Source of the DNA: Amphiscolops sp. MND2022
Taxonomy: Eukaryota
Assembly (NCBI GenBank): GCA_964187785.1
Contig: OZ076409.1
Span: 15,564,001 to 15,628,000 of the forward strand
Length of the DNA stretch: 64,000 nt
Reading direction: 5' to 3'
Each line of letters opens with the position of its first letter. The stretch's first letter is position 1. The position numbers and the translations under genes are program-made. Of the stretch, positions 1 to 26,334 are shown one piece after another. Below the pieces are notes generated by a model. It did not search any database and was not told the origin of the DNA. It saw nothing but the letters and a program-made list of their open reading frames with translations.

Positions 1-258
1 CTAAGTCCATGAGATTTTCTATAGAAAATTACACATCCAACAACATACTAAGAAATCATGTTTTGAAAAGCAAAAGTTTTGTATACTTTCTTTCAGCTAC
101 GTCCTAGTTGAAACTATTGATTTTTCCTCTTCACTTTTAGCTCTCGAGGTCCAAAATTGATAAAAGAACAAATCCTCATACTTTGACTTTTTAGATCTAT
201 TTTTATTTCTCTTTATTCACTTGGTATGTACCTAACAAACGAACTTTACATTACTTAC

Positions 259-3097
259 CTCCATCAGATACTCGGTCTGTACGCCTTCCATCGCTAGAGC
301 TTGTGTCAATGTCATTTTCTCGAGTATTTCACTGTGGTAGTCAAGAACAATCTCGTTTTTAAAAAACATCTGTGTGCTGACCACTCCGCGTCCATAAGAT
401 TTGAAATTGACTGGACATACGCCTGGCCAGCTCTGCGTGTCACATCGTTCTAATAGGAAGGTCTGACACTCGAAATCCATGTTATGTGCCATCCCTTTGT
501 ACATTATTTTGGCAGAACCATCACTGTCCATCCGCCTCGAATCTGGATTTTGTAGCATAGGTAGAACCAACAGAAACACTTTTCTAATGTCCTGTTTGAC
601 GTCTTCTGGGGTTGTCCATTTCTGCCTCTGGAAAAATCCTTCGATTCTTTTCTCCAAGATGTTCAAGTCACATTTCCCGTTCATATATTTGAAGAACGTT
701 GTGGCTCGAGCTGACTGTCGTGCGTATCGTTGAGCATCTTGATGCTTTCTCACGCATGTTTTGATAGTATCCTGGTCAAATTTATTGCCAAATTTTCCTT
801 GCACTTCCCTGATTTGATTTTTCAATTTTGGCAATCGTGCTTCAGGGTCGTCAACAATTGGATAGATGAGTTCTAATTTGAACTTCAGCTGATTGGCTGG
901 TTTTTTACATTGTTGAAGTACCTGAAATACATGCTTTAGATTAAATATATGATCTTTTGCACTAGAACTACAATGGTTTAGCAGATGTAGATTTTTCAAT
1001 CGAAGTTGTTTTGAAAACTCCGAATTATATAAAAAGCAAAAAAAAACAAACGTACAGGGATCAAATACTGGTCGACAACATGGCTCCGTCTAAAACAAGA
1101 CTTCCCAACAGAATTGACGAACAGGAGCTCAGTCACGACTGGTCGGTCATCACTTTCGGAGACACATCGTTGGAATTTCACACCTTCGGTTTTGTTGAGA
1201 AAGTCAGGTCTCGTGTGGCTTGCATACTCAACCAAACCTTCGATTAACCAGCGTGGTGTATTGTATTGTACTCGAGAAACAGAATCTGCAAAAGACATTT
1301 AACTTTGTGGATTATGCTAGACAGAATCTTTCAGACTGTAGATAATTAGTCTAGCCCTTAATGTATTTATACTCCATATTTATATTAGTTGCTTGTAAAC
1401 AACCTGTACCTGCCACCTGTAAATAAGTTTCGAGTTTTCAGGTTTTTTTGAAATTTTTATTATTAGAAAGACAAAATAGGCCCAAAATATTTTCGCCTCT
1501 GAGAACTCTAACCAATCGGAAAGCTGGCACTTGAACAAAAGTTGCCAGATTTTGATGAAAAGCCAAATAATATTAAATGACATGTTATTTTACAACGCAA
1601 TTCAACACTGAGCAATATTTCCATGACCATATGATGGTTTATAAGGTTTTAAATTTTGATGTACTACCCCCTTTGGTAGTTGTTTTCTTACAGTTTAAGA
1701 TATGTATGTGGTTTCCACAACACATGTATAAAGATATAGTCTTACTTTCCACAGTCGCTTTCGTGGCCATCGAACAGTGAATGCTATTTTGGTGGAAACC
1801 AGGACAATTCAGTCAGAATTAAATTTTGACGTACTACTACTACCTTTGGTAGTTGTTTTCTTACAGTTTAAGATATGTATGCGGTTTCCACGACACATGT
1901 AAAAAGATATGGTCTTACTTTCCACAGTCGTTTTAGTACCATTCAAGAACTAGCTCATTCGTTGAATGCTCAAAAAATGGCAGTTGATAAAATTCTGCCA
2001 AATTTTAATGACACACAGTTATATATAAATGCCATGTTTTTATAAAATGCCATGCAAAATTGATCAATGTTTTCGTAAGACTAGGACTTTTGAGACGAAT
2101 TTCGTGTTTAATACAAGTAAAAGAGACAAATATTCGTTGCTATTACACGTCATGATGGTTGGGGACACAGGGGACAAAATATGGGCGGCCTGGTTGCGTT
2201 TACAATGTTCATACTCAGCTCGAAATGGTGGAAACCAGGACAAAATATCAAATTGTTGTTTGGATCATCTAAAATTGATAGCTACTTTGATTTTCATCAA
2301 ATGTTTGAAAAAGTGAAAAAATTGTAGAGGTGAAAGGTTTAGGTTATGCATAATTACTTACTTTCATTTGGCTCGACTGAAAATGGTATGTCTTCATCAT
2401 CCGGGCAGTCTTTCATATGTACCACGGCTTGAGCCAACTCGTGGACAGTGATGTTTCTGATTTCCTTGTCCAACATGCCAGCAACGCCAACAAACAAAAA
2501 CAGGTAAGCCACCAGACTTCTGAAAAAGTTTATCTGGGTCTTCTTTGGGGCGCTAACATTCTTTTTGTAACGGCTCGTAATGGCAATTATAAAGGATTTT
2601 AGCCATTCTTTGGCTTCATCAGTCTTCAAGTCGGGTTTGCATTTTTTTGCAGGGGGAGTTGTTTTGACTATATTGTAGACTCTTTCTTCAGAAGAGTCAA
2701 CAAGCTGTTTCTGGCTTGAGGTCGGAACTGTGGCGCTGGTTAAACCCACGGCATTGGAAATGTCAAGATTAGGAGAAGGAGTTACCGCGTGATCTTCGAC
2801 CGGCTGATTTGGCTCGTGATGCTCTTCTTGCATAATCCCATCTGCATTGTAAGCAATCGAGCTCTGCGAGCTCTGCGTGTAGACTGTCTGCGAGCTCTGC
2901 GAGTAGACTGTTGCATCGAATGAGGGTGTCGAATTTGTTAAAGAAGGTTCTGAACTTCCGCTCAGCAAAGGAGTTGAGGATTCGATCAACCATGCGGTCA
3001 AGTTTGTCAATGGAGTCGAGAACTGGCTTAGAACAGATGAGTACGGCAATGGTGGATCGTGAGCAGGAGTTTGATTTCGGGGATCTGAATTATCCAT
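259..3097 (-). CDS. Spliced tyrosine-recombinase-like / SET-domain fusion protein (3' end lies beyond the last exon identified; YR part looks degenerate)
   Basis: Exons 3097-2362, 1285-1056 and 921-259 join in frame with GT-AG sites; a small extra exon near 2268-2218 is possible. Motifs: YR box-I-like FRSLVAYLFLFVGVAGMLDKEIRNITVHELAQA (catalytic R position is L), YASHTRP...LLFVNSVGK, then SET N-terminal QSWPGV...YGRGVVSTQMFFKNEIVLDYH. No HxxR/Tyr box II is seen. Confidence 0.6.
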
Positions 3098-3659
3098 TAG
3101 TTATTTAGTTGCAAACAAGCGATTCGAAAATTTGGAAGGAACTGTGATGTATATTCGAGAAGACTGGAAGCTAGCTACTGATTGGAAAAATGGTTTTAAA
3201 GAACCATCTTTATCAAACAATCGTTATCAAACAAAATTGAGCGCCATCTTTTTTTAATTATAGGCGGCGTTGGAATGACCCAAAGATCTCTTAATTAATT
3301 GCAAAGGTGAGTTTTAATTGAACCTCAGGATACACAGTAAGCATCGTCCCTACTTCAATCATAAGCGGTGTCAACTTGATGCCTGATCATAAGCGGTGTC
3401 AACTTGCCGCCTCAATTGAATATGCCCCCAATTTCCCTACTTTACTTTCCCAGTGGGTGTTCATTAGATCTGAGCATCAACAGTAATTAAGCATCGTCTC
3501 TACTTCAATTAGAGCGGCGTCATTTTGCCCCAGCTTTGAAATTGACGCAGGAAATGGGATTTTTTAAAGGTACTTTGGTTCCCCCAGCGGTCGTTAATTG
3601 AACTATTGATAAGGTGACTATTCCAGTCAGTCTCAAACTATCCACCTTTAAAAGCAGTG

Positions 3660-6446
3660 ATGCTTCTTCAAAAGTTCGAAACAAACGAAGTGGTCCATAT
3701 CCTGGACCCTCTAACATATATTTGGGAGCTTGCAAAAATCAGTGCAATCATGAGTGACTGGACTGTCAGAATCAAATGGATGGAGTGGTCTACGAGAAAA
3801 GCAGTTGACATAACAGTGCCAGAAATCGACAGGGAAGATCAGGTTGATATAACATTTCAAAATTTTTTTTCGAAATCCTTTCCACAATTCTCTGATCTCT
3901 TAGGCCAAAGTTCCGATGAAATGCGAAACCAGTTTCGAGGACAAAAAATACATCAATCGAATTTTAAAATTGAATAACTCTTTTGAAACCATGAAAATCT
4001 ATTGAAATTGATTATTGACGTAACTATAAGCTCATACGTTGGAGTGAACAAACTAGAAACTGGAAGTTCAACAAAGTTTGCCAAATAGAAACGACTAGTT
4101 AGATATTTAGAAGTGCCAATTTATTAGAAAATGCCAAACAAAAAATCATAAATTTCCTGAGGGCAAGACAAAAAATTGGCATGTAAACCTTGAAATACTA
4201 TTTATAATCAAAAAATGAAAAGTCCTACTTCCATTCATGAAAACTCGAAAAATGTAAGTAATGATGATTCCAATAAAAAAGATTTTGTGATATTTTGGTC
4301 CCACTTGTGAGTAAAAAAATTACTCATGATAGGTACCAAAATTATTCGTGATTAATTTCACCTTTGAATTGCTTTTTTAGCAGAAACTCGTTGCTACTAG
4401 AAGTCAGAGAGATAAAAATGTCCTCAATATCTTTTGTGAGGGCAAAAAAAGGCCTCTTAGTATACTTATATGAAAAAAAAATTATGTCATTTTGGTCCCA
4501 ATCGTGAGTAGAAAAATTACTCACGATTGGGACCAAAATTAGTCATGATTTATTTCACCTTTGAATTGTTTTTTGGCCGAATTGCGTTGCTTTCAGAAGT
4601 CAGAGAGACCAAAAATGTCCGTAATATTTTTAGAGCGAACGAAAGCCGTCCTCTAAAAATGCTAACCAATCGAAAATGTACCAATTTATCAAAATCTGCC
4701 AGATTTCAATTTTAAGCCAGATATAAATTATTGCCAGAATTTTCTAAAACGTCATTCAAATTTGATCAATATTTCAAGGACACTATTACGGTATATTAAA
4801 ATTTACATATTGACGTACTACCCCCTTTGGTAGTTGTTTTCTTACAGTTTAAGATATGTATGTGGTTTCCACGACACATGTATAAAGATATAGTCTTACT
4901 TTCCACAGTCGCTTTCGTGGCCATCGAACAGTGAATGCTATTTTGGTGGAAACCAGGACAATATGCTCAAAATGGTGGAAACCAGGACAATACAGTCAGA
5001 TTTGAATATTGACGTACTACCCCCTTTGGTAGTTGTTGTCTTACAGTTTAAGATATGTATGCGGTTTCCACGCCACATGTATAAAGATTTGGTCTTACTT
5101 TCCATTGTCGTTTTGGGACCATTCAAGAACGAACTCATCCGTTGAATGTTTATGGAAAAATGGCAGTTCATCAAAATCTGCCAGATTTTAATGACAATCC
5201 ACGTGTTGATAAACTCCACATTATTTTTTTTTCAAAATTTCAAAGAAACCCGTGATTGACGTTGATGAAAGAATGAAAAGCGAGAACTAATATTCAAACT
5301 TTTTCAGCGACGTTGGAATATTAGAAAAGCCCAGAAACTGGATGAAACTCAGCAAGAAACGGGGTAGAAGCTTGCCTTTCAATCCAAGGAAGTTAATGCG
5401 CAATGACAAAATTTTCTTTTGGCAATCAAATGACGAAGATTGTGACTGTATTGGCGACTTCGAAAATTGCGAGATTACTTGCTGCGGGTCAGTTGTTACT
5501 GCAACAGTGATGATCAACGATCCGTTCCTGCGACAGTGCATGGTCGTTGATGACGAAGGAAAAGAATTTTTCGTCTCTCATCGACAATTACGGGCAAGCT
5601 TGCCTGATCATCATGATGAGACTGCTCAAGATGACACCAACGAAGAATATGAATCACCTCCGACCATAATCGATTCCAGGCCTCCCGTAACGAAAAAGCG
5701 ATGCCCCCCAAAAACAATACCTTTTGTGGATGCAATAGCTTTGATACCACACAGTGAGGAGAACGTTGAGTTAAAGTATGCGCCATGCTTTAACAACATC
5801 CTGAAAGTTGGTTCTCTCACCAACTATGCAAACGCTACGTTTGAGGTAAAAGAACTGTTCTTTGATTGCAGCAAACGAAAAGCGTTTGTTAAATTGTTAG
5901 GAAAAACAAACCCCGATATTGAAGTACGCATGCCCGCACTAGAAGTTAAAGTTATCGAAGACGAAATAGAAGAATTCAATATCCACACTCTAGTTCATCC
6001 TATTAACCAAGCGTTCGCGGTGTTTTCAGCAGTAAAAAGGATGGTTGGATTTGCAAAAAAAAAAACATTCAATGACCAAATCATTAATTCCAGCGACGCC
6101 ATTGACCCGTAAAATGTGTGGTTTTGAAACGACGTCCTCAAAAGAAACAGTGAAATTCTCTGGGGATATCAGCAATGACATCAAAGGGTCTAATCAGTCA
6201 TGGGACAGTGTGCTTGGGAAACGATGGGACGTAATCGCAAGTGATAAAGAAGGTGAAGATGCCTTCATCAAAATTTTGAAGTTCACTGAACATCGTGAAT
6301 TCGGGTTTTTCATGATCCGATGTAGCTTTGTAGCATGTCGTGGTCACTTCAAGTGTTCAGATAATTATCGATCATTATATCAAACCAGTGTACAACGAAT
6401 GACAAACCCAACGTCCTGTATTTCTACAAACTCCCTGATTTCATAG
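3660..6446 (+). pseudogene. Two-exon gene with an N-terminal Tudor/chromo-barrel-like domain; two frameshifts
   Basis: Exon 3660-3843 encodes FETNEVVHILDPLTYIWELAKISAIMSDWTVRIKWMEWS, a pattern like Tudor-knot F..GE.V...D....W..AKI......V.V.W..W. Donor CAG|gttgat; acceptor tttttcag at 5307. Continues through ORFs 5342-6112 and 6045-6446 with frame breaks near 5340-5365 and in the A-run at 6055-6065. Confidence 0.45.
4489..4539. repeat. Perfect palindrome with 22-bp arms and a 7-bp asymmetric spacer; further copies at 4292-4342, 8242-8293, 14743-14793 and 17551-17600
   Basis: attttggtcccaatcgtgagta-gaaaaat-tactcacgattgggaccaaaat read directly; the other copies have a few mismatches and A-rich spacers. 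Confidence 0.9.
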
Positions 6447-7189
6447 TGTGTTATAGAGTAAAAAATACGTGACTCATAGAATTATTATTTACTGTATTTT
6501 ATGCTATCCTCAAGTGAAAACGTCTTCTCAACTTCTTTTGAATCTTTAGGCAGGTTGTTTACTAACAACTTTGAGACAGTTGCGATAGAGCACACAGAGC
6601 ACTCTATCACATCTAGGAACATAAATTTTCGGCACAGCGGAGAAATGCCGAAAACGCCAAAAACCGATAAATTTAGGGTTCGTTTCATAGCTTTTGCCAT
6701 ACTGTTGAGTTTTGCCAATAAAGATACTGTTCTAGGGTTGAAGAATGGAAAGAAGTGAATAGTGTTAAACTGTATTTTGTGGCACTAACGGTACGCATGA
6801 CACTCATACATGAATTGGCACTTTCTTTCAATTTGCCACTAACAAGTTTTTTTACCACAAATAAGAGTGTTTACGTATTAGCAAGTTTCTCACACTCTGA
6901 CACATTCGCCCTTTTATACTGATTGGATAATAGGCAAGTAATTAAAATTATTAATATATTATAAGTAAGTAGCTCCGTTTACTACCAAAGTTTGTGCGCT
7001 TTGCGCAATGTGATTGGTTACTACTGGACCAATAATAAAACAGTTTAATAGTTCAACAAAACTAAAATGTAGATGTTTGTTTCATTTTTTTGTGTTTCAG
7101 GCTTCACTTGACTAACATACTTACATACTTCACTTAACATACACTTGACTAAATCTGGAAGAATTTAGCTGATGATGACTTTCTAATGT

Positions 7190-7450
7190 TTGATTCATTT
7201 TGGTAGGTTTGGCGTTTTTGCGTGTAATGGCAAAGAGTAATTGAGTAAACAAAATAGATTAGCAGAGCGATTAGCCAATCAGAAGCGAGAACGCGCGAAT
7301 CTACTGTATCGGAGCAGAACAACAGTGCTTCAAACTGCCAAATTAAACAAAAGTGTCAAAATTGAACGTAAATCAAACAGCGAATTAATGGCAGCTAGTT
7401 CCAAAATTAGCAGAGTTTACGTTCAAGCGAATTATGAAAAAGATAAGCAA
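7190..7450 (+). mobile_element. Short Ty3/Gypsy pol fragment (region just upstream of the integrase zinc-binding domain)
   Basis: SSKISRVYVQANYEKDK matches NSKISQVYIQANYENDK of the Gypsy integrase ORF at 22334-22846. Confidence 0.7.
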
Positions 7451-7543
7451 TGTGTATATTTGAAATTTCGAGTAAGAGATGAAACTAAAAACTTTGTTGA
7501 ATGACAAAAGTGGAAATGAATAGAATAAGGGTGAATAAAAACA

Positions 7544-10500
7544 TCAATAGAGATCAAAGAGTTCATCCTCTTTAGGGATAGTTCTAATTCCTTTTAATGA
7601 AGCCACCATTGGCAGTGCACGAGGTCGGAACTTGTTTTCGCAAAACTTTGGAGTTTGCGAATTCTCCCTCAGCAGTTCGACTGTCGAAACACGGGTCTCG
7701 CGCGACTCACTCAAAACATCTACACTGTTAATGTAATCGGGGATGGTTGCGTAAGAGTCACCGGTGCATTTTTTGCTGACACACGCCAGATATTTTTCGG
7801 GGATTGCTGAATCTTGCAAGGTTCCGGTTGGTTTTTTCGTGCCCAGAAGCAATCGCAACTTGCTCATGCAAAACTGTGGATGAACCTGCAAATTAAAAAG
7901 AGAATAAGTTAAATGTGTGAAACGCTACAAGTTCAAAATGAACAATTCTTTTAATTCAAATCGTAAATACCTCCTGGACGGCCTTCTCATTAACAATTGT
8001 TTTCACTGCGTCGAACAAACGAAACTTGAAAGGACAAGCTCTCTGAATTTTTTCTGTTGCAGTGAGAAGAAGCAATGCCAGCAGCTCGGGAAGATCAGGG
8101 AACTTGTCATCCGCGTAAGTCCTCGAATGGTCAAGGATCATCATCTCCCGTATCATAGGGATGTGTCCAAAGGCCAAAAAATTGGTCCCCACTGCAATTG
8201 AGTCACCTGTAACGATTTGGTTGGGGAAAGACATAGAATTATAATTTGGTTCCAATGGTGAGTAAAAATGTTACTCACGATTGAGTCAAAAATTATTCAC
8301 AATTGTTGTCACTATAATTTAGTTTTGAGCCAATGCAATGGTTATTGCAAGTCAGAGAGTCAAAATTTAACAGAATCTGCCAGATTTCTATGACTAGCCA
8401 GATATTAAAAAATGCCAGCATTTTTCAAAACGCCATTCACAACTGAGCAATATTTGCAAGACACTACTACGGTATATTAAAATTTACATATTGACTTTGG
8501 AAGCGGACAAGAAGTGAAACTAGATTCAGTAAATTCAGCTAACGAAGTCCTAGTCTAATGAAAACGAAGTAATGAAAACAATTTTGCATGGCATTTTATA
8601 AAAACATGGCGTTTATATATAACTGTCTTGTCATCAAAATATGGCAGAATTTTATCAACTGCCATTTTTTTGAGCATTCAACGAATGAGCTAGTTCTTGA
8701 ATGGTCCTAAAACGACTGTGGAAAGTAAGACTATATCTTTATACATGTGTCATGGAAACCGCATACATATCTTAAACTGTAAGAAAACAATTACCAAAGG
8801 GGGTAGTACGTCAATATTTAAATCTGACTGTATTGTCCTGGTTTCCACCAAAATAGCATTCACTGTTCGATGGCCACGAAAGCGACTGTGGAAAGTAAGA
8901 CTATATCTTTATACATGTGTCGTGGAAACCGCATACATATCTTGAACTGTAAGAAAACAACTACCAAAGGGGGTAGGTAGTACGTCAATATTCAAATCTG
9001 ACTGTTTTGATGGTTGACCTTTCAACAATGATGGTTGAAATTTCAAACAAAAACCATTGTTAAAGTGTTTGGGTCTAATTATTTAATTATAAATGGCTTT
9101 CACCATGCTGTATTTTTCAAAGGTAATTGTATTTCGTCATTAATTGCGCAAAATACCCCCTACCAACCCCCCCCCAAGCGACCGGAAAGGTAGAAAAACT
9201 TAAATTAATTCAATTTAATATCACAGGAGATTGTTTTGATTGACACGAAAAATCCCAAAGTACGAATAGAGATACTCGTGACTGGTACCAAAAATGAAGC
9301 ATGTCATTGAAAAGTGGAAGATTGTGATGATCTGGCAGTTTCCTCAAAACTGGTACTAAAGTGAAAAACAGTAATATTTGTGTAATATGATTATAACCAT
9401 TTTGCATGATGATTATTGGAAAGGCAGAAGACTTTAAAGTAATTCAATTTTTTATCAATGAAACTTGTTTTGATTGACACGAAAAATCCCAAAGTAGAAA
9501 TAGAACTTCAGAGACAAAATCAAAACATTCTGAAAATTAAAAGACTAAAAACAATTTTACATGGCATTTTTTGGAAACGTGGCATTTATTCATAAATGTC
9601 TTGTCATTAAAATATGGCAGATTTTTGTCAACTGCCTTTTTCATAAGCATTTGAATAATAATTCGTATATATTTTCGTTTCGAGCCAAATTGCCTGCATA
9701 ACCCATAGATGCTATAGAAGACCATAATACCTTTCGTGAGGACGAAATGAAGGTAGTTGGCAGGCATGACTAGCATGTCACTGGGTGTAACAGTGAGTCG
9801 GAGGCATCCTTCTTCCAGTTCATTGATGGCACCGAAGAACGTGGGTCTAAAACATCAAACTAAATCAAAATTAGTTTTCATGCACTGTTCCTGTAAATAT
9901 AGGTGACCATTGTTTCGTTGAAAACAATTCATTTCTAAATGCTGTAAAAAAACTATTCGTTAGTTTCAATTAAAAAAACTTACGTTTGGTCATTTTCTGC
10001 ATCTGACCATTTCTCGAATATTGCCATATTCTTTTTTGTTGGCTTCACCAAGAAAAAAATTTTCTCGCCACGAAGAACAGTATAGCAAACAGAAGTTGCT
10101 GAAAAGTCTTGGTGCCAAGTTGTGTGCGCTGAGTCCTGTGTAATTAGCAGATAATATGAAGTGGCATAGGAATAAGGCTCGAGGCTAGTCTTCCCAATGA
10201 GTTTTTCAACCAGGTGACCAATGGAATTTTCTCTTATCATCTTTGGAACTGTGTACAGCTTCTTAAACACAAAAATTTACTTTGAAAAAAATTGAAATTA
10301 GTTGAAAAATTAGATTATTCATTCATCAAGTTTCCCAACTCACTTTTGGCTTCAACCTGATATCGATAACATTCAGTGGATAATTCACGTCATCGGGGCC
10401 ACATGAATTCAAAGCATCTACGAACTCCGGTATGGAAAGAGATTGCGTCTGAAATTAGGAAGTAGTCATATCGTTTTATGGAAAAAGGTAAAGAATAATT

Positions 10501-11598
10501 TTTGTGAAAGAAGTTTGAATGGTGAAAAATCAAATAAAAACACTACATGAATTCAATATTCGAGGCAATTTGGCCTCAAAAAAGAAACAGTATTTTTGCG
10601 AAAAGATAATGAAAAACCTACAGTGCCGATCTTTGCCGATTTCACATCAAGGTGCTGCTCTGGATCAGCCAAATTTGATGCCATCAGGAGTTGCTGGACT
10701 TCACTGGGAAAATCCGCTTTCCTGTCAATTTTGGGAAGCTTTATACCGGGACAGTGGTTTGCACCACCTTTCCAAAGAAGAGGTATGCCTTGTTGCAACA
10801 GAGAGCCTAAATGCACACTTGGATTCTCCTGAGGACCCTGCCACTCGTCGAAAGAAAACCCACATTCCAGAGGAAGTTTCTCGCAAAATTCAAAGTACCC
10901 TGTGGTACCAAAAGGAGATGGGGGATACTCTGAAAAGGTGACATCAACAGGCATTGGAGCTAGGGCTACTTGGCAAGATAGTGATCTTGCGACGTGATTC
11001 CGGAGTACGTACTGGTACGCGAACAACTTGTCACAACTCAGACAAATATGGGGACTTTTATGATGACCTTTTGCAGCTGCTGGAAAACACCATGTGTAAA
11101 CACAAAGATTTGTTAATTCCCCTTCTAAACACCCCCTACCCCCAAAAAAACCTTTACATCTTTCAAGATCATAAGTATTGGAGCAAAAAACTCAATAATA
11201 TAAGTATTAATAAATAACTTACGATATTTGTACATGGACACTTCTATGCCGGCATCAATCTTGTTTTTCTGCTTGACACAGTATTTAGCGTTCTTTTGAT
11301 GACGCATCCGACTTTTCTTGTTAGTGAACAACTGTCCACAATTCTCACAGGTCACTTCTTTTTTCTTCCAGTCCTCATAGGGCATTCCTGGGCACTGCTT
11401 CTCATGACGCTGGAGGTTGAACAACCGATCAGTGACGTAATCACAGGCGCCATTGGTACAAGAAAATAAGTTGGTCGAGCTTTTTTTGTACTTCTTGTAT
11501 GACGGTGCTTCATTCTGGCTTTTATTATTCGGCAAGAACTGCCCGCATTTCTCACAGGTCACTGCTTGTGACTGTGATGAGCAAGCCTGATCAGACAT
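7544..11598 (-). CDS. Zinc-finger (C2H2/C2HC) + JmjC-domain protein, KDM2/KDM7(PHF8)-like lysine demethylase fold, 7 exons, about 651 aa
   Basis: Exons 11598-11223, 11124-10622, 10448-10344, 10261-9984, 9846-9731, 8206-7971 and 7885-7544 join without stops (1956 nt), all GT-AG. JmjC motifs YLLITQDSAHTTWHQDFSATSVCYTVLRGEKIFFLVKPT and DMLVMPANYLHFVLTKGDSIAVGTNFL keep HxD...H and the 2-OG Lys. N-terminal fingers: CTNGACDYVTDRLFNLQRHEKQC, CENCGQLFTNKKSRMRHQKNAKYC, CLSCDKLFAYQYVLRNHVARSLSC. Confidence 0.85.
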
Positions 11599-11616
11599 CT
11601 GGAATATAGGTTTATA

Positions 11617-14600
11617 AGAATCAGGAGACAGAGTAGCGTTCTTTTGACAAGTGTAGTTAGAAACTGTTCACGCGTTTTCTTCAAATTATCGGGCTATAGC
11701 TTACCATAAAAGGATGAGAGTCATCTGACATACTAGAGGATCAAAACATGCTGAGGTGTAATCATTCAAACAAATAGTAGTTTAGCATAATCTGCCAAAT
11801 TTTGAACTTAAGTGACATTTTGTATGACTGCCATGTTATTCATAAAAAGAAACAATGTAAGATCAGTCAATAATTTTGTGAGACCAGGATCAAACTTCGT
11901 GACAATTTGTGACCAAAATTATTCAAGGTTAATTTCAACTTTGAATTACTTTTAGCCGACTTTCGTTGCTATGAGAAGCCAGAGAGACCAAAAATGTCCG
12001 TAATATTTTTAGAGCGAACAAAAGCCGGCCTCTAAAAATGCTAACCAATCGAAAATGTACCAAATCATCAAAATCTGCCAGATTTCAATTTTAAGCCAGA
12101 TATAAATTATTGCCAGAATTTTCTAAAACGTCATTCAAATTTGATCAATATTTCAAGGACACTATTACGGTATATTAAAATTTACATATTGACGTACCAC
12201 CCCCTTTGGTAGTTGTTTTCTTACAGTTTAAGATATGTATGTGGTTTCCACGACACATGTATAAAGATATAGTCTTACTTTCCACAGTCGCTTTCGTGGC
12301 CATCGAACAGTGAATGCTATTTTGGTGGAAACCAGGACAATATGCTCAAAATGATGGAAACCAGGACAATACAGTCAGAATTAAACCTTGTGTCTCATTT
12401 TCCCCTGCGGTCGCTTGGGGAGGGGGCATTTTGCGCAATTATTGACGAAATGCAATTACCTTTGAAAAAGACAGCATGGTGAAAGCCATTCATAATTAAG
12501 TAATTAGACCCAAACACTTTAATATAACTTTATGCTGACATCAAAGCAGTATTTCAACCTATAAGGGTTAACCAAAAAGTTTGGCTTTCAATTCCATTTC
12601 GTTCATTGTTGCCAACAAACTCAAACGATCCAGTCTCTATTCTTTTTTGTCATCATTCAGTCTCTCTCCTCCTTCTGTTCTCATTCTGCCATCAATCAGT
12701 CTCTCTTACCAGGTCATCTGTACTCGGTCTCTCCGCAAACCCTTTTCTGCACCCAGTCTCTCTCCTCTCTCCACAAGTCATACATCTGTACTAAATTTCG
12801 CTTCTTGCTTCAATGGATGAACTCATCTCACAAAACGGCGACAACGCAGTTAATAAAATACATGGAAAGTCGAATACCCCACGCAAAGTTGGGTTTTGCT
12901 ACTACTGCCAAGTGTTCTACCCCAACGGGAAAATGAAGTACAAAGTTACACAAAAAAACACGTACGATGAAGATATCATTTTCGATGACATCTGGAGACC
13001 GAACAATAATCTTCATGTTAAGCCTTTTAGGGCTCAGCTCTAAACAGCCAGTACCCCGCAAATCAAATCCAGTACAGCAGAAACCCAAAGAAGATATTAT
13101 AAGCCCTCTCGAGCCACTACTGCTTCAACAGAAGAAACTTAATGCTTTGTTGATCTGTTTTTTTCATATATATTTTTGTATTTAGATGATCAAATAATTT
13201 TTTCATATACAGTCATTTTCTGTACAAAGCTCTAAATTGTTTGAGTTAACGTAGACCGAGAACCGCGCAGAGAGAGGAAAATGAGCTATATATTACACAG
13301 ATATTCGTGTTTTTCAAAAAGAGGGCGTTAGCCAACAGAGAAGCTTTGGAAGCGGACAAGAAGTAAAACTAGATTCAGTAAATTCAGCTAACGAAGTCAT
13401 AGTCTAATGAAAACGAATTAATGAAAACAATTTTGCATGGCATTTTATAAAAACATGGCATTTATATATAACTGTCTTGTCATCAAAATATGGCAGAATT
13501 TTATCAACTGCCATTTTTTTGAGCATTCAACGAATGAGCTAGTTCTTGAATGGTCCTAAAGCGACTGTGGAAAGTAAGACTATATCTTTATACATGTGTC
13601 GTGGAAACCACATACATATCTTAAACTGTAAGAAAACAACTACCAAAGGAGGTAGTACGTCATTATTTAAAATCTTTTATACCTTAATGTTGTCATGGAA
13701 ATATTGCTCAATTTTGAATGACGTTTTATAAAATTCTAGCATTTAAAAAATCTGGCTTGTCATCAAAATCTGGCAGATTCTTTTGAACTGCAGTTTTTCG
13801 ACTAGTTTACTTTAACAATTGAGCTTAGTGTTACGTCCATAATCAAATCCGTTTGTATTTGCTTGGTTTCAAAATATATTAGTCACGAAAATATGGTTCC
13901 CACGTCACGTAAAGAGAAGGCTGCGAATTCTTCATTCAATAATCTGTTTTGGTATGCCGTTTTTCAGCTACATTTTTGTAGGTAGTATCAGCAATCATAA
14001 GTACGTATCAGATTACGCTCAGTACAAAGTCCTCAAAATTGAAGAACATTCCTTAGATTGAAATTTTATATGATATTGCTTACCTTGAGTACTGGGAGTT
14101 CGGATAGATAAGTATGTCTCGAAACCCTTGCACAAAGAGGAATGAAGTAGCAAAAGTGGCAATGAATCAATATCAAACAAAGTTTCAACGAGCGAGAAAT
14201 GACAAATAAACGAGCAGTTAATCAGCTAGGTAGCTCAAAATTGCAAAGTACTAACTAAACGTGACTTTTCACGGACTATGGTTGACCAAAGAATCAGGAG
14301 AGAGAGACAAAGTAGCGTTCTCTTTTGACAAGTGTAGTTAGAAACTGTTCACGCGTTTTCAAATTATCGGACTATAGCTTACCATTAAAGGATGAGAGTC
14401 ACCTGACATAGTGGAGGATCAAAACATGCTAAGGTGTAACCAATCAAACAAATGGTAGTTAAGCATAATCTGCCAAATTTTGAACTTAAGTGACATTTTG
14501 TATGACTGCCATGTTATTCAAAAAAAGAAACAATGTAAGATCAGTCAATAATTTTGTGAGACCAGGATCAAACTTTGTGACAATTTGTGACCAAAATTAT

Positions 14601-17340
14601 TCAAGGTTAATTTCACCTTTGAATTACTTTTAGCCGAATTTCTTTGCTAGAAGTCAGAGGGACGAAATATGTCCATAATATCTTTCGTGAGGACAAAAAA
14701 GAGGCCTTTTAGAATACTAAAATGAAAAAAAGATTTTGTGATATTTTGGTCCCAATCGTGAGTTAAAAAATTACTCACGATTGGGACCAAAATTATTCAT
14801 GATTAATTTCATCTTTGAAATACTTTTTTAGCCGATGTTCGTTTCTATAAGAAGTCAGAGGGACGAAATATGTCCATAATATCTTTCGTGCGACAAAAAG
14901 CCGGCCTCTAAAAACGCTAATCAATCGAAAACAGATTCTTTTTTATTAGAGTCTGGCATATTTCAATGACAAGCTAGGTATAAATGAATGTCAGAATACT
15001 CTAAAACGTCATTCAAAATTGAGCCATTCTTCCATGACACTACTACGGTATATTAAAACTCACATATTGACGTACTACCCTCTTTGGTAGTTGTTTTCTA
15101 ACAGTTTAAGATATGTATGCGGTTTCCACGACACATGTATAAAGATATGGTCTTACTTTCCACAGTCGTTTTAGCTCATTCGTTGAATGTGATACTACAA
15201 AAATGGCGGTTTATCAAAATCTGCCAGATTTTGATGACAAGCTAGATAATATTAAACGCCATGTTATTCGAAAACGCCATTCAAACATTGAGCAGTTTTT
15301 CCTTGACCATAGGACGGCATAATAGATTTTAAATTTTGACGTATTACAATACAGTCAGAATTAAACCTCGTGTCTCATTTTCCCCTGCGGTCGCTTGGGG
15401 AGGGGGCATTTTGCGCAATTATTGACGAAATGCAATTACCTTTGAAAAAGACAGCATGGTGAAAGCCATTTATAATTAAGTAATTAGACCCAAACACTTT
15501 AATATAACTTTATGCTGACATCAAAGCAGTATTTCAACCAATAAGGGTTAACCAAAAAGTTTGGCTTTCAATTCCATTTCGTTCATTGTTGCCAACAAAC
15601 TCAAACGATCCAGTCTCTATTCTTTTTTGTCATCATTCAGTCTCTCTCCTCCTTCTGTTCTCATTCTGCCATCAATCAGTCTCTCTCACCAGGTCATCTG
15701 TACTCGGTCTCTCCACAAACCCTTTTCTGCACCCAGTCTCTCTCCTCTCTCCACAAGTCATACATCTGTACTACATTTCGCTTCTTGCTTCAATGGATGA
15801 ACTCATCTCACAAAACGGCGAAAACGCAGTTAATAAAATACATGGAAAGTCGAATACCCCACGCAAAGTTGGGTTTTGCTACTACTGCCAAGTGTTCTAC
15901 CCCAACGGGAAAATGAAGTACAAAGTTACACAAAAAAACACGTACGATGAAGATATCATTTTCGATGACATCTGGAGACCGAACAATAATCTTCATGTTA
16001 AGCCTTTTAGGGCTCAGCTCTAAACAGCCAGTACCCCGCAAATCAAATCCAGTACAGCAGAAACCCAAAGAAGATATTATAAGCCCTCTCGAGCCACTAC
16101 TGCTTCAACAGAAGAAACTTAATGATTTGTTGATCTGTTTTTTTTCATATATATTTTTGTATTTAGATGATCAATTAATTTTTTCATATACAGTCATTTT
16201 CTGTACAAAGCTCTAAATTGTTTGAGTTAACGTAGACCGAGAACCGCGCAGAGAGAGGAAAATGAGCTATATATTACACAGATATTCGTGTTTTTCAAAA
16301 AGGGCGTTAGCCAACAGAGAAGCTTTGGAAGCGGACAAGAAGTAAAACTAGATTCAGTAAATTCAGCTAACGAAGTCCTAGTCTAATGAAAACGAAATAA
16401 TGAAAACAATTTTGCATGGCATTTTATAAAAACATGGCATTTATATATAACTGTCTTGTCATCAAAATATGGCAGAATTTTATCAACTGCCATTTTTTTG
16501 AGCATTCAACGAATGAGCTAGTTCTTGAATGGTCCTAAAACGACTGTGGAAAGTAGGACTATATCGTTATACATGTGTCGTGGAAACCGCATACATATCT
16601 TAAACTGTAAGAAAACAACTACCAAAGGGGGTAGTACGTCAATATTCAAATCTGACTGTATTGTCCTGGTTTCCACCATTTTGAGCATATTGTCCTGGTT
16701 TCCACCAAAATAGCATTCACTGTTCGATGGCCACGAAAGCGACTGTGGAAAGTAAGACTATATCTTTATACATGTGTCGTGGAAACCGCTTACATATCTT
16801 AAACTGTAAGACAACAACTACCAAAGGGGGTAGTACGTCAATATTCAAATCTGACTGTATTGTCCTGGTTTCCACCATTTTGAGCATATTGTCCTGGTTT
16901 CCACCAAAATAGCATTCACTGTTCGATGGCCACGAAAGCGACTGTGGAAAGTAAGACTATATCTTTATACATGTGTCGTGGAAACCACATACATATCTTA
17001 AACTGTAAGAAAACAACTACCAAAGGAGGTAGTACGTCATTATTTAAAATCTTTTATACCTTAATGTTGTCATGGAAATATTGCTCAATTTTGAATGACG
17101 TTTTATAAAATTCTGGCATTTGAAAAATCTGGCTTGTCATCAAAATCTGGCAGATTCTTCTGAACTGCAGTTTTTCGACTAGTTTACTTTAACGATTGAG
17201 CTTAGTGTTACGTCTATAATCAAATCCGTTTGTATTTGCTTGGTTTCAAAATATATTAATCACGAAAATATGGTTCCCACGTCACGTAAAGAGAGGGCTG
17301 CTAATTCTTCATTCAATAATCTGTTTTGGTATGCCGTTTT
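11617..17340 (+). repeat. Tandem segmental duplication (~11617-13965 and ~14290-17340) containing a ~950-bp module
   Basis: Both units start agaatcaggaga...gtagcgttc...tgacaagtgtagttagaaactgttcacgcg and end ...ggtatgccgtttt. Near-identical small ORFs at 12581/15561, 12813/15793 and 12967/15947. Confidence 0.9.
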
Positions 17341-17902
17341 CCACTTTCGAACAAACTGCCAGATCATCACAATCTGCCATTTTTTGATGACATGCTTTAA
17401 TTTTGGTACCAGTCATGAGTATCTCTAATCGTATTTTGGGATTTTTCGTTTCAATCAAAACAATTTCAATTAATATAACTTGTTAAAAAATGTCTTTCGT
17501 GAGGACAAAAAGGTAGCCTTTTAGTATACCAAAATGAAAAAAATGGTGATATTTTAGTCCCAATCGTGGGTAAAAAATTACTCACGATTGGGACCAAAAT
17601 TATTCATGAATAATTTCACCTTGGAAATACTTTTGCTGTCGCCTTGCGAATGCTGATGATAAAGAATTCGAAGATAGAGCAATACTATATTTAACAAAAG
17701 ACCATGTGGTGAATGGCCGCTGATGTTATTCTGCTTGATACGGTTCTGTTTGTAAATAGGGTATCAATTTGTGTTAAATATATGTTTACAACTTGCTTTG
17801 AATTAACTGTTTGATTAATTGGTTTTGTTCGAGAGTGAGGTCAAGGTCAACTCTCTCAACTAATAACTTTGGTCGTGAGACCGTAAGGAATATAGTTATA
17901 AC

Positions 17903-18210
17903 TAGGGCAACCGCAATTTGCCCTTTATTGATTAAAATTTTGCCCTTTATTTGCCGCCCTTCATTTTAAAATTTGCCCCTTATTTGCCCTTTATCGGCAC
18001 GCGTTTGAAAACGAAGGTTCAACAAAAAAAGGCAAATTCACTTATTAAAAGTTTTCAATTAACATTAGAACCCACTGTCTCAACGCATTTGTACGTCACC
18101 AAAAACTGCCTTTCTCCAATTTCTCCCACATGAACAAACTTTTTATCGAAATTTTTGCCCCTAACCCTAGTTTAGCCCCTTTTGCCTTTTTGCCCTTTTT
18201 GGTTGCCCTA
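17903..18210. mobile_element. hAT-type MITE (308 bp)
   Basis: TIR tagggcaacc...ggttgcccta; 8-bp TSD gttataac on both sides; internal tttgccc repeats. Confidence 0.9.
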
Positions 18211-18361
18211 GTTATAACAAGTTACATGACTGTTGATGGTACTCTACGGGTGCTAGCACAAATTGTATGTGTTAGGGTATCGTACTCAATTTAGCAACAA
18301 CGAGTTGGTGTACGTATGGGTTATAAAATTTTACATGACTTCATGACACCATGCTTCATAA

Positions 18362-18548
18362 TAGGGCTGTGCAATTATCATTTTTCTGAGTTCGGTCGGT
18401 TCCAAGTAAAACTGGGCCTTAATAGAAATGCTTCAATCTAAATGGTTAACGAATTAACCGAAGTCGGTTATATAATAAGTCGGTCGGTTTCGGTTATTGC
18501 CAACTTCGATCTGTTAATCGAGTTCGGTCGGTTAATTGCACAGCCCTA
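18362..18548. mobile_element. hAT-type MITE (187 bp)
   Basis: TIR tagggctgtgcaatta...taattgcacagcccta; 8-bp TSD cttcataa. Confidence 0.9.
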
Positions 18549-18620
18549 CTTCATAACTAACAAATGTTGAGGTTTATGTTTGTTTTTGAGTTTGTTTGTC
18601 GCTTCTTTGCTTCTTTGACT

Positions 18621-20600
18621 TCAGTTTTGGTCTTCTGCTTGTGTTCCATCAATCCGTGTGACCATGACGTTTTGGCCGTAGAAGTTTGTTTTGTATCTTC
18701 GGCGCTCTCCTCTTCTGTTCTCGCTTCCCTCTTGGACTGTTTGTCGCCTTGGTGGCAACTCGTTTGGCTCTTTCAGCTCGGGTGGTTCTGGCATTTCTCT
18801 CTTTTGTGGCATTGTTGGCCTTGTTTCTTCCTCTGATTCTTGTTTTTTTTGCTGCTGCTCTTCGTCTTTTTCTTTGGCCATCATCTCCTCTTCGTCGCTC
18901 TCTAGTGCGTTGATAGTTTTTAGGTTCGGGCTGTTTGCTGTTTGTTGTTTCTTCTTCTTGTTTTGTCTTCGTCTCCTTTGCTGTCTTATTGCCTTCTTCA
19001 GTTTTTCTATTGCTGGTCTTTTTGTTTTTGTTTGTTTCTCGCTCCTGATTGGTTGTTCTGTCATTGCGCTGGTTGATTGTTCAGGCGGGAAACTGGCAAT
19101 TTCTTGTATTGAGTCATTTGACTCATTTTGCGCTTCGCTGTTTGTCTGCTGTACGCCGCTGCTGTGCGTTTCGCTCATAATTGCTGTATCGTTCAGGCTT
19201 TCTCTTTCTTTTTGTAGCCATCTGTCTGCGTCTTTTGAGCAGCATGGTTCAAGTTGATCGTGCCCAATCATCGTGCCCAACATGATGTCTCTTTTTGACA
19301 TGATGGTTGCTTTGCCCTTTCCTGCAGAAAGGAATGTCACTGTGTGTTCGGTCTCTTCTAGCAGGGTCCCCTTTTTCTTCTTGTATGCCCCTTCTAATTT
19401 GCTTCCCCGGGTTCTTTCTCGCACGAGAATAGCTGAGTCCTGGCCTGACTCAAAATCTGTCTCCGTTAGCTTGATATCTGATGTATCTGAAAAACACATG
19501 TCCCGATTTATTACAAGTCTCATTATCGTGTTAGGTTCTGTGCCCGTGTACTTCTCATATGGCGTTTTTCCGTTTTTTGTGGGGTACACTCGAAGTACGA
19601 ATAGTATCTCGGAAAGGCGTGAATTATCTCTTTCTACTACTATTTTCTTATTTGTCCTAAGCCTTTCATTAGTCTCTTTTGGCAGAATTCTTTGAACCGC
19701 TTACTACGGAATATTGTTGCTGGATCCGTTCTTATCTTTTGCGGTATTCCATGTCTTTCAATGTACCTTTTTAAAAATTCTATTACATTTTCTGTAGTTG
19801 GCTTTCTTAACAAATTAGCCTCGGGCCATCCAGAAAAAGGATCGACTGAAACTAATAGATATTTACGCGCGTTTATGGCGTTTTGGAACGGCCTTGCGAA
19901 ATCGATTGCTATTTCTTGATTGTTTTCTACACATTTTGGCAGTTTTCCTATTTGTTTTTGAGTTAGTATAGTTTTGATGTTCTTACCTGGTTCGCGGCAT
20001 AGTGGGCAAGATCGGGCGATTGCTACTACCTCTCGATGTAATCGAGGCCACCACACGTTAGATAATGTCGCTAGCATCGAATCTCGTCCGGGGTGTCCAT
20101 AATGTAATGATCTCATTATTATGGGGCGGAGCGTTTTCGGGATGACCAACCGTTCATCCATATAGAGAAAGTCATGTTGGTCTAAACTAAGGCTTCTGAA
20201 TTTCTCTCTCCACGGTGCGGGGAGGCGGTTTATTTTTGTCGAGTCCGGCTTCTTCATTAAATTTATTATTTTCTGCAGAAACTCATCAGTCTCATACTGC
20301 GAAGCGAATGTGACGTTTCCGAGGGTTTGTAACACCTCTATTTGGTTCATAGAGTAACAGACGGGTGTTTTGATTGGTGGCTTGTCCGCCATTCGCTGTA
20401 GCTCTTCGCTCATTTTATCGTTGTCGATATCTCGATATCGTCTGAGCTTGTCTCGCTAATTGCTGTCGCTTGAATGATTGCGGCTATTTGTTTAAATGGC
20501 GCTTTGTTTACATTCGTTGCTTCGCGTTCGAGTGCCGTCACCTTGTTATCTTGCCGCTCGCTCGCGTTTGCCAATTTCGTTCTTATTGGCTGATTCTTAG
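18621..20600 (-). mobile_element. Truncated Ty3/Gypsy pol remnant (integrase zinc-binding domain, partial core, C-terminal tail)
   Basis: LHYGHPGRDSM...WWPRLHREVVAIARSCPLC (HHCC); IAIDFARPF...VDPFSGWPEA...RTDPATIF. Internal deletion and frameshift near 19680-19600; no RT seen. Confidence 0.85.
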
Positions 20601-21466
20601 TCGCTTTCGTGGCCATCGAACAGTGAATGCTATTTTGGTGGAAACCAGGACAATATGCTCAAAATGATGGAAACCAGGACAATACAGTCCGATTTGAATA
20701 TTGACGTACTACCCCCTTTGGTAGTTGTTTTCTTACAGTTTAAGATATGTATGCGGTTTCCACGACACATGTATAACGATATGGTCCACCTTTCCACAGT
20801 CGTTTTAGGACCATTCAAGAACCAGCTCATTGGTTGAATGCTAATAAAAAAAAGGCAGTTGATAAAAATCTGCCATATTTTGATGACAAGACAATTATCA
20901 ATAAATGCCACGTTTTCAAAAAAATGCCATGTAAAATTGTTTTCAGTGTTTTCATGAGACTAGGACTTTTGAGATAAATTTTGCGTTAATTACAAATCAG
21001 AGAGACAAAATCTGCCCATAATATCTTTCGTTAGGACAAATACATGCCTCTCAGTTTTTCAATATGAAGGAAGAAAACGAAAACGAAACAAAACGAAAAG
21101 ACTGTCAAAACTGTATTCTTTAACGGTATTCTGATTCTATTTGTTTTTAATTTTACACATTTCTTTTCTCACAGCTTTCAAGGGTACAAATTTATCACTC
21201 TACCACACTTCCCTTACAATTAAAAATCTCGGACGTTGGAGTAACGGTTTACAACATTAGTTTAGTTACACATTGGACTCAGGTAATTCATAGACATACC
21301 ATGAAGAATACAGTACAGTTTACAGAAGTTTTTAGGTTAACACTGAACATAACTGCTAGCATGATTGGTGTTACTACAACACTCTCATTTAACTATAGCA
21401 ACTGTTTAAAAGAACACAATTGTTTAAAAGTTTCTCGATTGTTTTTCTTTACATTGGTTTTGGGAT

Positions 21467-22990
21467 CTCATACACACTTGTTGCCCAGGCGGTCTGGTTT
21501 CTTCGTCACTCGGCTCGACGTTCTTTTTTTTCCCATTTGATCGACACACCACTTTCACCGTGACTAGCACTCGTCACTTCTCTTTCCTCGTCTTTCTTTT
21601 GTTGTTCATTTGTTTCCTCAGGTTGTGATACCATTTCGGTTTTGTGCATATTTACATCTTCTTGATTGTCGCTACAATCTTCTTGTTGCGTGTCTTGATC
21701 ATCTGATTCTTCAGGGTTTATATATGGTGCCACATCGCTCCACTTGGGTACTTTCCCCATTTCCTGCTTTTGTTGGCTGATTTTTGTTTTTGTTCGTTTG
21801 GCCACTTTCTTTGCTTTTGGCACATTTCCGTTCTCCTTGTTGGGCTTCGTTCCGCTGCTGCATTGAGGTTCGTCTTCATTTGGCGTTTCTCGTCTTAGCC
21901 ACGCTACATCTCTTTTTGAGTAGGTTCTCTCTTTTCCTGTTTTGGGGAGGATTGTTATTGTATGCCCCGACTGCCCTTCTACGGCACCTTTGACTTTTTT
22001 AAATGCTCCCTCGAGCTTGGTGCCTCTCATCCTTTCGCGTACCAAGATGGTCGAATCTGTTTCACTGAAATCCTCTGGATCAATTTCTATCAACGGGTCT
22101 TTGTCTAAAACACATTTTTCAACCATCACTGATTTTAGTGTATTCGGTTTTCGCCCTGTTTGTCCTTCAAAAGCTGATTTTCCATCCGCCACTTTTTCTG
22201 TCCCCAAAGCAAATAAAATGTTTGAGATTGAAAATTGATAAAGTTTAATGATTGAGATTGATAAAATTTTGAGATGAAATTCAATCCCTTTTTCCGACAT
22301 AGGTTTTGGCATGTGGCCATCCCGAATTATTATCTACCGATACGAGTAAATACTTATTTCGTTTATGCGCATTTTGAAAGGGCCCCGAAAATCGATTGAA
22401 ATTTCTTCATTTGACTCTTTTGCTTCCGGTAACTTTCCAAACTCTTTTTGCGTTTTCAAACAATTTAGGTTCTTACCTGTTTTTTGGCATTCTGAACAGA
22501 TTTGGGCTTTCTCTACAATTTCCCTGTGGATTTTCGGCCACCAAATGTCCGAGGCCTCTCGCAGCATAGTGTCCCTCCCGGCGTGTCCAAAGTGAATCGC
22601 TCTCAATAAATTTTCTCGCATATCCTTCGGGATAACTAGACGGTTGTCCATAAATAGTAAACCCTTTTCGTTGACGCTGAATGAGGGAAATTTTTCCCTC
22701 CAAGGAGGTGGAAGACGCGAAATAACTGTAGTGTTTTTTTCTTTAACCAAGCGAATAACTTTTTGAATTACTTTATCGTTTTCATAGTTTGCTTGAATAT
22801 ACACTTGGCTTATTTTAGAATTTGTCAAAATGCTATCATCTGCCATTTTAAGAACTTGCTTATAATGACCAACTTGTTTGCTTTTCTCTACTCGTGTGCA
22901 ACGGCGCGTGAAGTTTCAACACTTCCCTTTTTGATCCCTTTGCTTAATTGCGATTTTGCTGCGTTCTTATTGGTTCGCTTATTTTAGCCA
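21467..22990 (-). mobile_element. Second truncated Ty3/Gypsy pol remnant (related family)
   Basis: IHFGHAGRDTMLREASDIWWPKIHREIVEKAQICSEC; the tail DSTILVRERMRGTKLEGAFKK is paralogous to DSAILVRERTRGSKLEGAYKK in ORF 18621-19589. Integrase core deleted. Confidence 0.85.
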
Positions 22991-23689
22991 TTACCGTTCA
23001 ATGAATGGAGTTATATCTATATGGCATTTTATAATAGTATGGCATTTATATATTAAAATCTGGCAGGTTTTGTCAAAGTGTCTCGTTTCAAATTGGTTAA
23101 CATTCTTAGAGGCCCGCATTTTGTCCTCACGAAATTTATTTTGGACTTATTTTGTCTCTCTGACTTCTAATAGCAACGAAATGAAATTCGGCTAAAAAAG
23201 TAATTCAAATGTGAAATTCTAAATGTCTTAGAAGAAATACACTCATCTGCGGAAGATGAACCTGCGTCCCATTGTTGAGCCTTGGACCCCCTTTGGTAGT
23301 TGTTTTCTTACAGTTTAAAATATGTATGCGGTTTCCACGACACATGTATAAAGATATGGTCTTACTTTCCATATTTGTTTTTCCTCATTCGCTGGAGGTC
23401 AACCTAAGAAAATGGCAGTTTATCAAAATCTGCCAGATTCTAATTACGAACAAAATGATAATAAATGCCAGAATATTATAAAATTTAAAATTGGACAATG
23501 TTTTCATGACCATAAGACGGTTTATAAGGTTTGAAATATTGACGTACTACCTACCCCCTTTGGTAGTTGTTTTCTTACACTTTAAGATATGTATGTGGTT
23601 TCCACGCCACATGTATAAAGATATAGTCTTACTTTCCACAGTCGCTTTCGTGGCCATCGAACAGTGAATGCTATTTTGGTGGAAACCAG

Positions 23690-24630
23690 GACAATACAGT
23701 CAGAATTAAACCTTGTGTCTCATTTTCCCCTGCGGTCGCTTGGGGAGGGGCATTTTGCGCAATTATTGACGAAATGCAATTACCTTTGAAAAAGACAGCA
23801 TGGTGAAAGCCATTTATAATTAAGTAATTAGACCCAAACACTTTAATATAACTTTATGCTGACATCAAAGCAGTATTTCAACCAATAAGGGTTAACCAAA
23901 AAGTTTGGCTTTCAATTCCATTTCGTTCATTGTTGCCAACAAACTCAAACGATCCAGTCTCTATTCTTTTTTGTCATCATTCAGTCTCTCTCCTCCTTCT
24001 GTTCTCATTCTGCCATCAATCAGTCTCTCTTACCAGGTCATCTGTACTCGGTCTCTCCGCAAACCCTTTTCTGCACCCAGTCTCTCTCCTCTCTCCACAA
24101 GTCATACATCTGTACTAAATTTCGCTTCTTGCTTCAATGGATGAACTCATCTCACAAAACAGCGACAACGCAGTTAATAAAATACATGGAAAGTCTAATA
24201 CCCCACGCAAAGTTGGGTTTTGCTACTACTGCCAAGTGTTCTACCCCAACGGGAAAATGAAGCACAAAGTTACACAAAAAAACACGTACGATGAAGATAT
24301 CATTTTCGATGACATCTGGAGACCGAACAATAATCTTCATGTTAAGCCTTTTAGGGCTCAGCTCTAAACAGCCAGTACCCCGCAAATCAAATCCAGTACA
24401 GCAGAAACCCAAAGAAGATATTATAAGCCCTCTCGAGCCACTACTGCTTCAACAGAAGAAACTTAATGATTTGTTGATCTGTTTTTTTTTCATATATATT
24501 TTTGTATTTAGATGATCAATTAATTTTTTCATATACAGTCATTTTCCGTACAAAGCTCTAAATTGTTTGAGTTAACGTAGACCGAGAAACGCGCAGAGAG
24601 GAAAATGAATTATATATTACACAAATATTC
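23690..24630 (+). repeat. Third copy of the ~950-bp module (others at ~12380-13330 and ~15350-16320; partial inverted copy at ~9060-9190)
   Basis: Near-identical sequence and ORFs (23905, 24137, 24291) to the copies at 12.6 and 15.6 kb. Confidence 0.9.
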
Positions 24631-25875: not shown

Positions 25876-26334
25876 TAATGATCATGCAAAATGAATATTA
25901 TATTACGCAAATATTACTGTTTTTCAGTTTAGTACCAGTTTTGGAGAAACTACCAGATCATTGAAATCTGCCACTTTTAAATGACATGCTTCAATTTTGG
26001 TACCAGTCACGAGAATCTCTATTCGTACTTTGGGATTTTTCGTGTCAATCAAAACAATTTCCTTTGATATAAAATTGATTTAATTCAAGTTCTTTTGCCT
26101 TTCTAATAATGATCATGCAAAATGAATATTATATTACGCAAATATTACTGTTTTTCAGTTTAGTACCAGTTTTGGAGAAACTACCAGATCATCAAAATCT
26201 GCCACTTTTAAATGACATGCTTCAATTTTGGTACCAGTCACGAGTATCTCTATTCGTACTTTGGGATTTTTCGTGTCAATCAAAACAATTTCCTTTGATA
26301 TAAAATTGATTTAATTCAAGTTCTTTTGCCTTTC
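25876..26334 (+). repeat. Two-copy 231-bp direct tandem repeat
   Basis: taatgatcatgcaaaatgaatattat... begins at 25876 and 26107; related sequence is inverted at ~9225-9435. Confidence 0.9.

Follow-up and report, generated by a model that had tools for sequence, protein, structure and literature searches.

What brings together, within about 11 kb, three spliced genes resembling a writer, a reader and an eraser of histone methylation, the first of them joined to a domain like that of tyrosine recombinases (YR)? The question is raised by a window of 64,000 nucleotides from Amphiscolops sp. MND2022 (contig OZ076409.1, positions 15,564,001 to 15,628,000). Positions below are counted within this window; negative ones lie to its left, and 0 corresponds to C1:15564000. 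The original prediction held that the genes were part of a large YR-associated mobile element inserted in a dynein intron.

Ends, insertion site and transposase

Comparison with colinear sister copies set the element at 39,994 bp (G000:C1:15550567-15590560), with positions 1..26560 inside the window and the left end 13,433 bp outside it. Copies on C2, C4 and C5 were 99.6-99.8% identical over -13433 to 26560 and had identical end bases (n = 3). Terminal inverted repeats of 31 bp, beginning CATTACAGTG, lie at -13433..-13403, preceded by a duplicated GT, and at 26530..26560 on the minus strand, the latter being 93.5% identical to the former and followed by the second GT (26561-26562). The termini CATTACAG..CTGTAATG recurred in subfamilies A, A2, B and D, with 5'-CA..TG-3' ends. 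A 2-bp target duplication of varied sequence was found at 15 of 16 paired ends, short non-autonomous derivatives included, and the one mismatch belonged to a subfamily D copy. In addition, the terminal 23-mer occurred 503 times in the genome, against 0 for the reversed control.

The target was a hAT-like transposon, which the element split; its remainder occupies 26561..26652, and pieces of its transposase are found to the left of the element. In all seven hAT-like paralogues the flanks were joined with a single GT, which confirms the insertion by an empty-site comparison. Host dynein heavy-chain exons were found on both sides (upstream, C1:15547867-15548407; downstream, 43486..45087 on the plus strand, AAA_8 144-259), which places the element region within a ~59-kb dynein intron, as had been predicted. 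The same intron holds a full-length-looking LTR retrotransposon directly after the hAT remnant (26650-41217; gag-pol 27510-34119, further long frames 34362-35471 and 39936-40961), and a nested host gene with ABC-2 transporter exons lies between dynein exons on the minus strand (51091-52232). Elsewhere, in the G000:C6:66116556 region, a subfamily B copy is flanked by two similar sets of dynein AAA_8 exons (C6:66.11 and 66.16 Mb), which suggests a local duplication around it.

Just outside the window, the minus strand of the element carries a transposase gene with a main open reading frame of 837 aa (-4685..-2172), a C-terminal part (-5263..-4628) severed by a 1-bp deletion private to this copy (compared with four of four sisters), and a probable upstream exon (-1942..-1559). 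Pfam and PDB sequence searches did not place the protein, and only its fold did: the predicted structure is RAG1/Transib-like and contains a D-D-E triad together with DxxH. The CxxC after the second D is absent, DxxH alone being kept, and PYKLK replaces the expected His pair in the alignment rows covering the site. The element is almost certainly a large DNA transposon bounded by terminal inverted repeats and 2-bp target duplications, likely moved by cut-and-paste through this modelled RAG1-fold DDE transposase.

Compared with RAG1, ProtoRAG and Transib, the transposase shows 10-12% identity and lacks the zinc-ligand motifs; the 2-bp duplication also departs from the 5 bp of Transib and RAG transposons, and no RAG2-like partner was noticed. 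It likewise departs from that of P elements, whose target duplications measure 7-8 bp, and the Z score against their transposase was lower than that against RAG1. The CMCT clade of DDE transposons comprises EnSpm/CACTA, Mirage, Chapaev, Transib, Plavaka, ESTA, along with Lanisha (Kojima 2025, PMC12730594). Set against published clade features, the element shares with it CA..TG ends, a duplication within the 2-5 bp range, the RAG1-like fold, the D-D-E triad and repeated subterminal motifs, and its CATTA ends resemble the CATCA of PlavakaB. Unlike the clade, its transposase has neither C(2)C nor H(3-4)H, and it carries SET and JmjC genes; its size range of 17-47 kb compares with 16-20 kb for the enlarged EnSpm of algae (cited in PMC6431247). 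With this transposase, the structural group of RAG1 and Transib would come to include a form that has no zinc motifs.

Genes for predicted histone-modifying enzymes

The YR-like/SET gene (259..3097, minus strand) has exons at 3097-2362, 1285-1056 and 921-259 and a last, fourth SET exon left of the window (-304..-62, minus strand), which together encode 623 aa across GT-AG junctions. The SET domain, nearest to SETD8/KMT5A by both profile and fold (~25% identity), keeps the NH and DY motifs and is predicted to be a lysine methyltransferase. It contains an extra C-x-x-H...C insert, and has F where SETD8 has Y, at what we take to be the product-specificity switch position of SETD8; the enzyme may thus go beyond monomethylation. 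A G-to-S change in the DYHG motif of the window copy was absent from the other 11 loci compared.

The YR-like part has the fold of a YR catalytic domain, with a structural match to XerD 111-235 that ends before the HxxR box. Neither the window exons nor the subfamily C protein matched a YR family in Pfam, and Atlas gave only leads below 0.9, integrases among them. When positions were mapped via fish relatives, the R-H-R-Y residues were not conserved in any homologue shown for this lineage, and the modelled fold is predicted to be a catalytically dead YR derivative. The proposed YR-like/SET fusion thus stood as a spliced gene with a YR fold and a SETD8-like domain, extending beyond the window, and its catalytic tetrad proved to be lost. 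Among fish-type YR-SET proteins, P0149, P0153 and P0076 have an apparently intact catalytic pattern, and 3 of 12 gave weak integrase SAM-like matches.

These features bear on the idea, implicit in the original prediction, that a tyrosine recombinase moved the element in the manner of Cryptons or Starships. A YR fold is indeed present, and fish relatives, read by eye, keep a recognisable R..K..xxR..H..Y pattern, but the catalytic positions are lost in this lineage, the structural match stops short of the HxxR box, and a DDE transposase resides in the element. Moreover, the 31-bp inverted repeats and target duplications are at odds with Cryptons, which lack both and have short direct repeats at their ends (PMC3212892, partial text). 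We rejected mobilisation of this type, and its probability is close to nil. MarCry-1_FO, a Crypton carried by a Mariner, provides a precedent for a YR riding in an element with terminal inverted repeats and for a DDE enzyme as the mover, and DUF3504 similarly combines a YR fold with loss of the tetrad (PMC3212892, partial text). Unlike DUF3504 and Cryptons, the element joins a dead YR to a SETD8-like domain, in a gene that is under selection as part of the element and not a domesticated host gene.

The predicted zinc finger-JmjC gene (7544..11598, minus strand) proved to be real and spliced, with seven exons (11598-11223, 11079-10622, 10448-10344, 10261-9984, 9846-9731, 8206-7971 and 7885-7544), GT-AG junctions and a PHF8/KDM7-like product of 636 aa. 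Only the catalytic part matched relatives, PHF8 being closest (6e-16), followed by KDM7 and KDM2. The catalytic HQD...H and the GEK lysine are intact (HQD 363, GEKIFF 378, LHFV 438), and the protein is predicted to be a histone demethylase. PHF8 and KDM7 have an N-terminal PHD finger; Pfam found none in the element protein, which has C2H2 fingers instead. Both enzymes therefore have SETD8/KMT5A or PHF8/KDM7 as nearest catalytic domains but differ from them in the attached YR fold or fingers.

The barrel gene (3660..6446, plus strand; exons 3660-3842 and 5308-6446) encodes ~440 aa when open. In the window copy it is frameshifted near 5351 and in an A-run near 6055, and it was broken in six of six youngest-group copies examined (A-run length varied, n = 5; stop at codon 40 in C136). 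Copies with broken genes have multiplied, which may be explained by an intact protein supplied in trans or by assembly errors in homopolymers. W22, W34, W40 and W43 are invariant in four of four subfamily rows, a pattern reminiscent of PHF20-type Tudor domains. With shallow profiles, Pfam, PDB profiles and Atlas gave no support for a Tudor domain, hhalign comparison with Tudor-knot and MBT alignments from the host gave probabilities of at most 0.5%, and the real unfiltered HMM score was reached by 22-432 of 500 shuffles. The divergent two-exon gene is thus real and its Tudor assignment found no support by any method used; of the supposed writer-reader-eraser kit, a SET writer and a JmjC eraser are predicted and the reader is unconfirmed. 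The window's copy as a whole is damaged in the transposase, the barrel gene and the SET motif, and part of these lesions may be assembly errors.

Copies, selection and internal repeats

Genome-wide, an exon of each of the three genes was matched 150 times or more. Of 71 full-length YR/SET matches, taken at ≥90% identity, at least 62 were accompanied by a transposase, at least 70 by the barrel exon and at least 64 by the JmjC exon; in at least 55 of the 71 all three stood within 25 kb, each with the side and strand expected. A copy from each of subfamilies A2 (46.9 kb), B (17.8 kb), D (17.1 kb) and C contained all four genes; no right end was located for the copies of subfamily C at C13 and C8. 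Across subfamilies the genes stand in three orders, with YR/SET and barrel always head to head. The repeated order and orientation of the four genes and the exact ends common to copies bear out the view of a large dispersed mobile element rather than a host cluster, and the family has recently multiplied.

By simple counting, dN/dS between B and D was 0.055-0.18 for cargo genes and 0.135 for the transposase; between A and A2, where changes were few, it was 0.10-0.75 and 0.39, respectively, with weak constraint on barrel exon 1 (0.75) and JmjC exon 2 (0.71). Deeper dS values were often saturated. These sequence comparisons indicate that the cargo genes are under purifying selection, as core genes rather than passengers. 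The youngest group does hold junk (LTR fragments, repeated units) and several copies have decayed, which would suit passively captured host fragments of the Pack type, or an ordinary host gene cluster. Such an origin is nevertheless very improbable, given whole multi-exon open genes kept in five subfamilies through rearrangement, dN/dS well under 1 and the number of matches per gene.

Short non-autonomous derivatives, 0.14-1.2 kb long, that retain both ends and are flanked by 2-bp duplications lie at C1:34789514-34790330, 50277947-50278085 and 52231745-52232546, at C2:3900676-3901920 and at other sites (G000). Most of the 100 matches to the termini that were listed, which cover C1 and part of C2, lacked a partner, and some were arranged in tandem arrays (C2:34.28 Mb). 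An 8.3-kb B-type element (L094:624-8958) has both ends, an AT duplication and the YR/SET gene, with no transposase, barrel or JmjC match. Accessory genes vary by subfamily: C has an ELM2-domain frame just downstream of the JmjC exons (L083:6620-6895; Pfam 1.3e-4, over the cut-off), and A a RING-like frame (-7151..-6846, minus strand). The viral scan gave no loci. For P0008 (transposase) and P0219 (barrel), the longest contig is given as 14,243 in both cases, which is a hint only.

A 199-bp internal repeat family carrying GTGGAAACC extends over 1648..23700, and the element ends carry GTGGAATCC. All 25 blast hits of the unit in 84 kb lay inside the element (-11931 to about 23650) and the 44 kb of flank examined had none, in agreement with the initial observation that the repeat does not occur past ~25 kb; one intron of each of the YR/SET, barrel and JmjC genes contains it, also as first observed. 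When the repeat was mapped genome-wide, its 27-mer core occurred 662 times, with 61 of 66 occurrences on C1 in seven gene-bearing copies, and the unit was nearly confined to subfamilies A and A2. The 9-bp motif GTGGA[AT][AT]CC was enriched within the elements, with inside/outside counts of 53/1 in A, 64/0 in A2, 11/2 in B and 17/1 in D. It also builds the subterminal repeats and occurs in introns over the element's full length; because the internal motif is like the subterminal one, it is perhaps a transposase-binding site.

A 231-bp subterminal tandem repeat (25876..26344, plus strand) recurs near the left end in the same orientation and is inverted at 9185-9504. Three units of ~950 bp (12355-13314, 15346-16295 and 23680-24638, plus strand) are 98% identical, adjoin the 199-bp repeat and contain an 82-aa open frame with a CYYC motif; the A2 element also has three (88-91% identity), and the unit is possibly a fifth, amplified gene. 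Two nested LTR-retroelement integrase fragments (18621..22915, minus strand) are present in sister copies and had no match in the A2 copy. Since they have been copied to other chromosomes with the element, it ferries other mobile DNA. Such fragments also occur at L013:8483-L014:261, in the youngest subfamily.

Possible role of the histone enzymes

SET8 writes H4K20me1 (bioRxiv 10.1101/2023.11.22.567520, partial text), and PHF8 erases it, H3K9me2 also being a substrate in some contexts (PMC5397186, partial text). H4K20 is thus the mark common to the nearest relatives of both element enzymes. We favour, with a probability of roughly 0.55, the reading that SET and JmjC act on the element's own copies and keep them active. 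First, the dead YR fold, like the C2H2 fingers, would serve as a DNA-binding module, and between them they would bring both enzymes to the repeated internal motif. Second, JmjC would strip repressive H3K9/H4K20-type methyl marks from element copies. Third, SET would add an H4K20 mark compatible with expression of the element, and the barrel protein may read it. Several points weigh against this: the substrates are deduced from nearest relatives, H4K20me1 is tied to activation and repression alike (PMC5397186, partial text), a writer and an eraser of a single mark could cancel out, and the internal motif may instead bind the transposase. The youngest group also multiplied with broken barrel genes, and a metagenome scan gave two transposase loci without cargo, of only 3.5 and 5.9 kb.

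The same shared mark would also suit enzymes that influence how the excision gap or insertion site is repaired, with local H4K20 methylation tipping the 53BP1/BRCA1 balance towards sister-chromatid copying (copy gain) or end joining (clean insertion). SET8 locks homologous recombination via 53BP1 (bioRxiv 10.1101/2023.11.22.567520, partial text), PHF8 is the corresponding H4K20me1 demethylase (PMC5397186, partial text), and the transposase tail gave a weak BRCT hint, although its E of 0.14 falls below any cut-off. This reading leaves unaccounted for the motif's occurrence in introns over the full length of the element, and we consider it unlikely. Less likely still is a methylation switch on non-histone proteins of the element or host, for example in transposase timing. 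The JmjC protein without PHF8's PHD finger would fit such a switch, and the specificity of SET may differ because of its C-x-x-H...C insert and F for Y, but the fusion of both enzymes to likely DNA-binding modules points to chromatin.

Action on the element's own copies has partial parallels. VANC is not known to be a SET or JmjC enzyme. Like VANDAL/VANC, the element has element-specific tandem repeats in non-coding parts and encodes factors of its own, and its internal-repeat anatomy matches that given for VANC targets, although transposase-binding sites fit too; VANDALs differ in their MuDR transposase and plant hosts, and repeat binding is shown for VANC whereas for the element we infer it (PMC5735166, partial text). 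HarbingerS and oomycete MuDR with SET genes, and fungal transposons with TET/JBP, likewise join a DNA transposon to a chromatin-modifying enzyme (PMC12730594). They have other transposase groups and hosts and, as described, one enzyme type each, unlike the predicted writer and eraser together in the element. Our literature search, with Repbase outside its scope, found neither an element that combines SET with JmjC nor one that has such a transposase, and a review of giant transposons (PMC6431247) contains no occurrence of 'SET domain', 'JmjC' or 'demethylase'.

A more far-reaching reading, which we hold tentatively and as rather doubtful, is that these giant transposons form an undescribed lineage at superfamily level, in which the RAG1-fold transposase has lost the RAG zinc site and the element carries a complete self-targeted histone-methyl module, with a SETD8-like writer aimed by the dead YR, a PHF8-like eraser aimed by fingers, a barrel reader and the 9-bp motif as target. 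If true, the module would do in an animal, by means of histone enzymes, what VANC anti-silencing does in plants. The family likely explains some unnamed animal SET-domain genes fused to integrase-like domains. How transposons counter chromatin silencing is known chiefly from plants (VANC), with suggestions from fungi and oomycetes; this recently active family, from a genome likely to be animal given its MBT genes, many dyneins and fish relatives, combines a candidate target motif with a predicted writer and eraser and allows comparison across five subfamilies, so that protection, repair steering and spillover to host genes are directly testable. A natural sequence-targeted histone editor could, in addition, serve as a tool.
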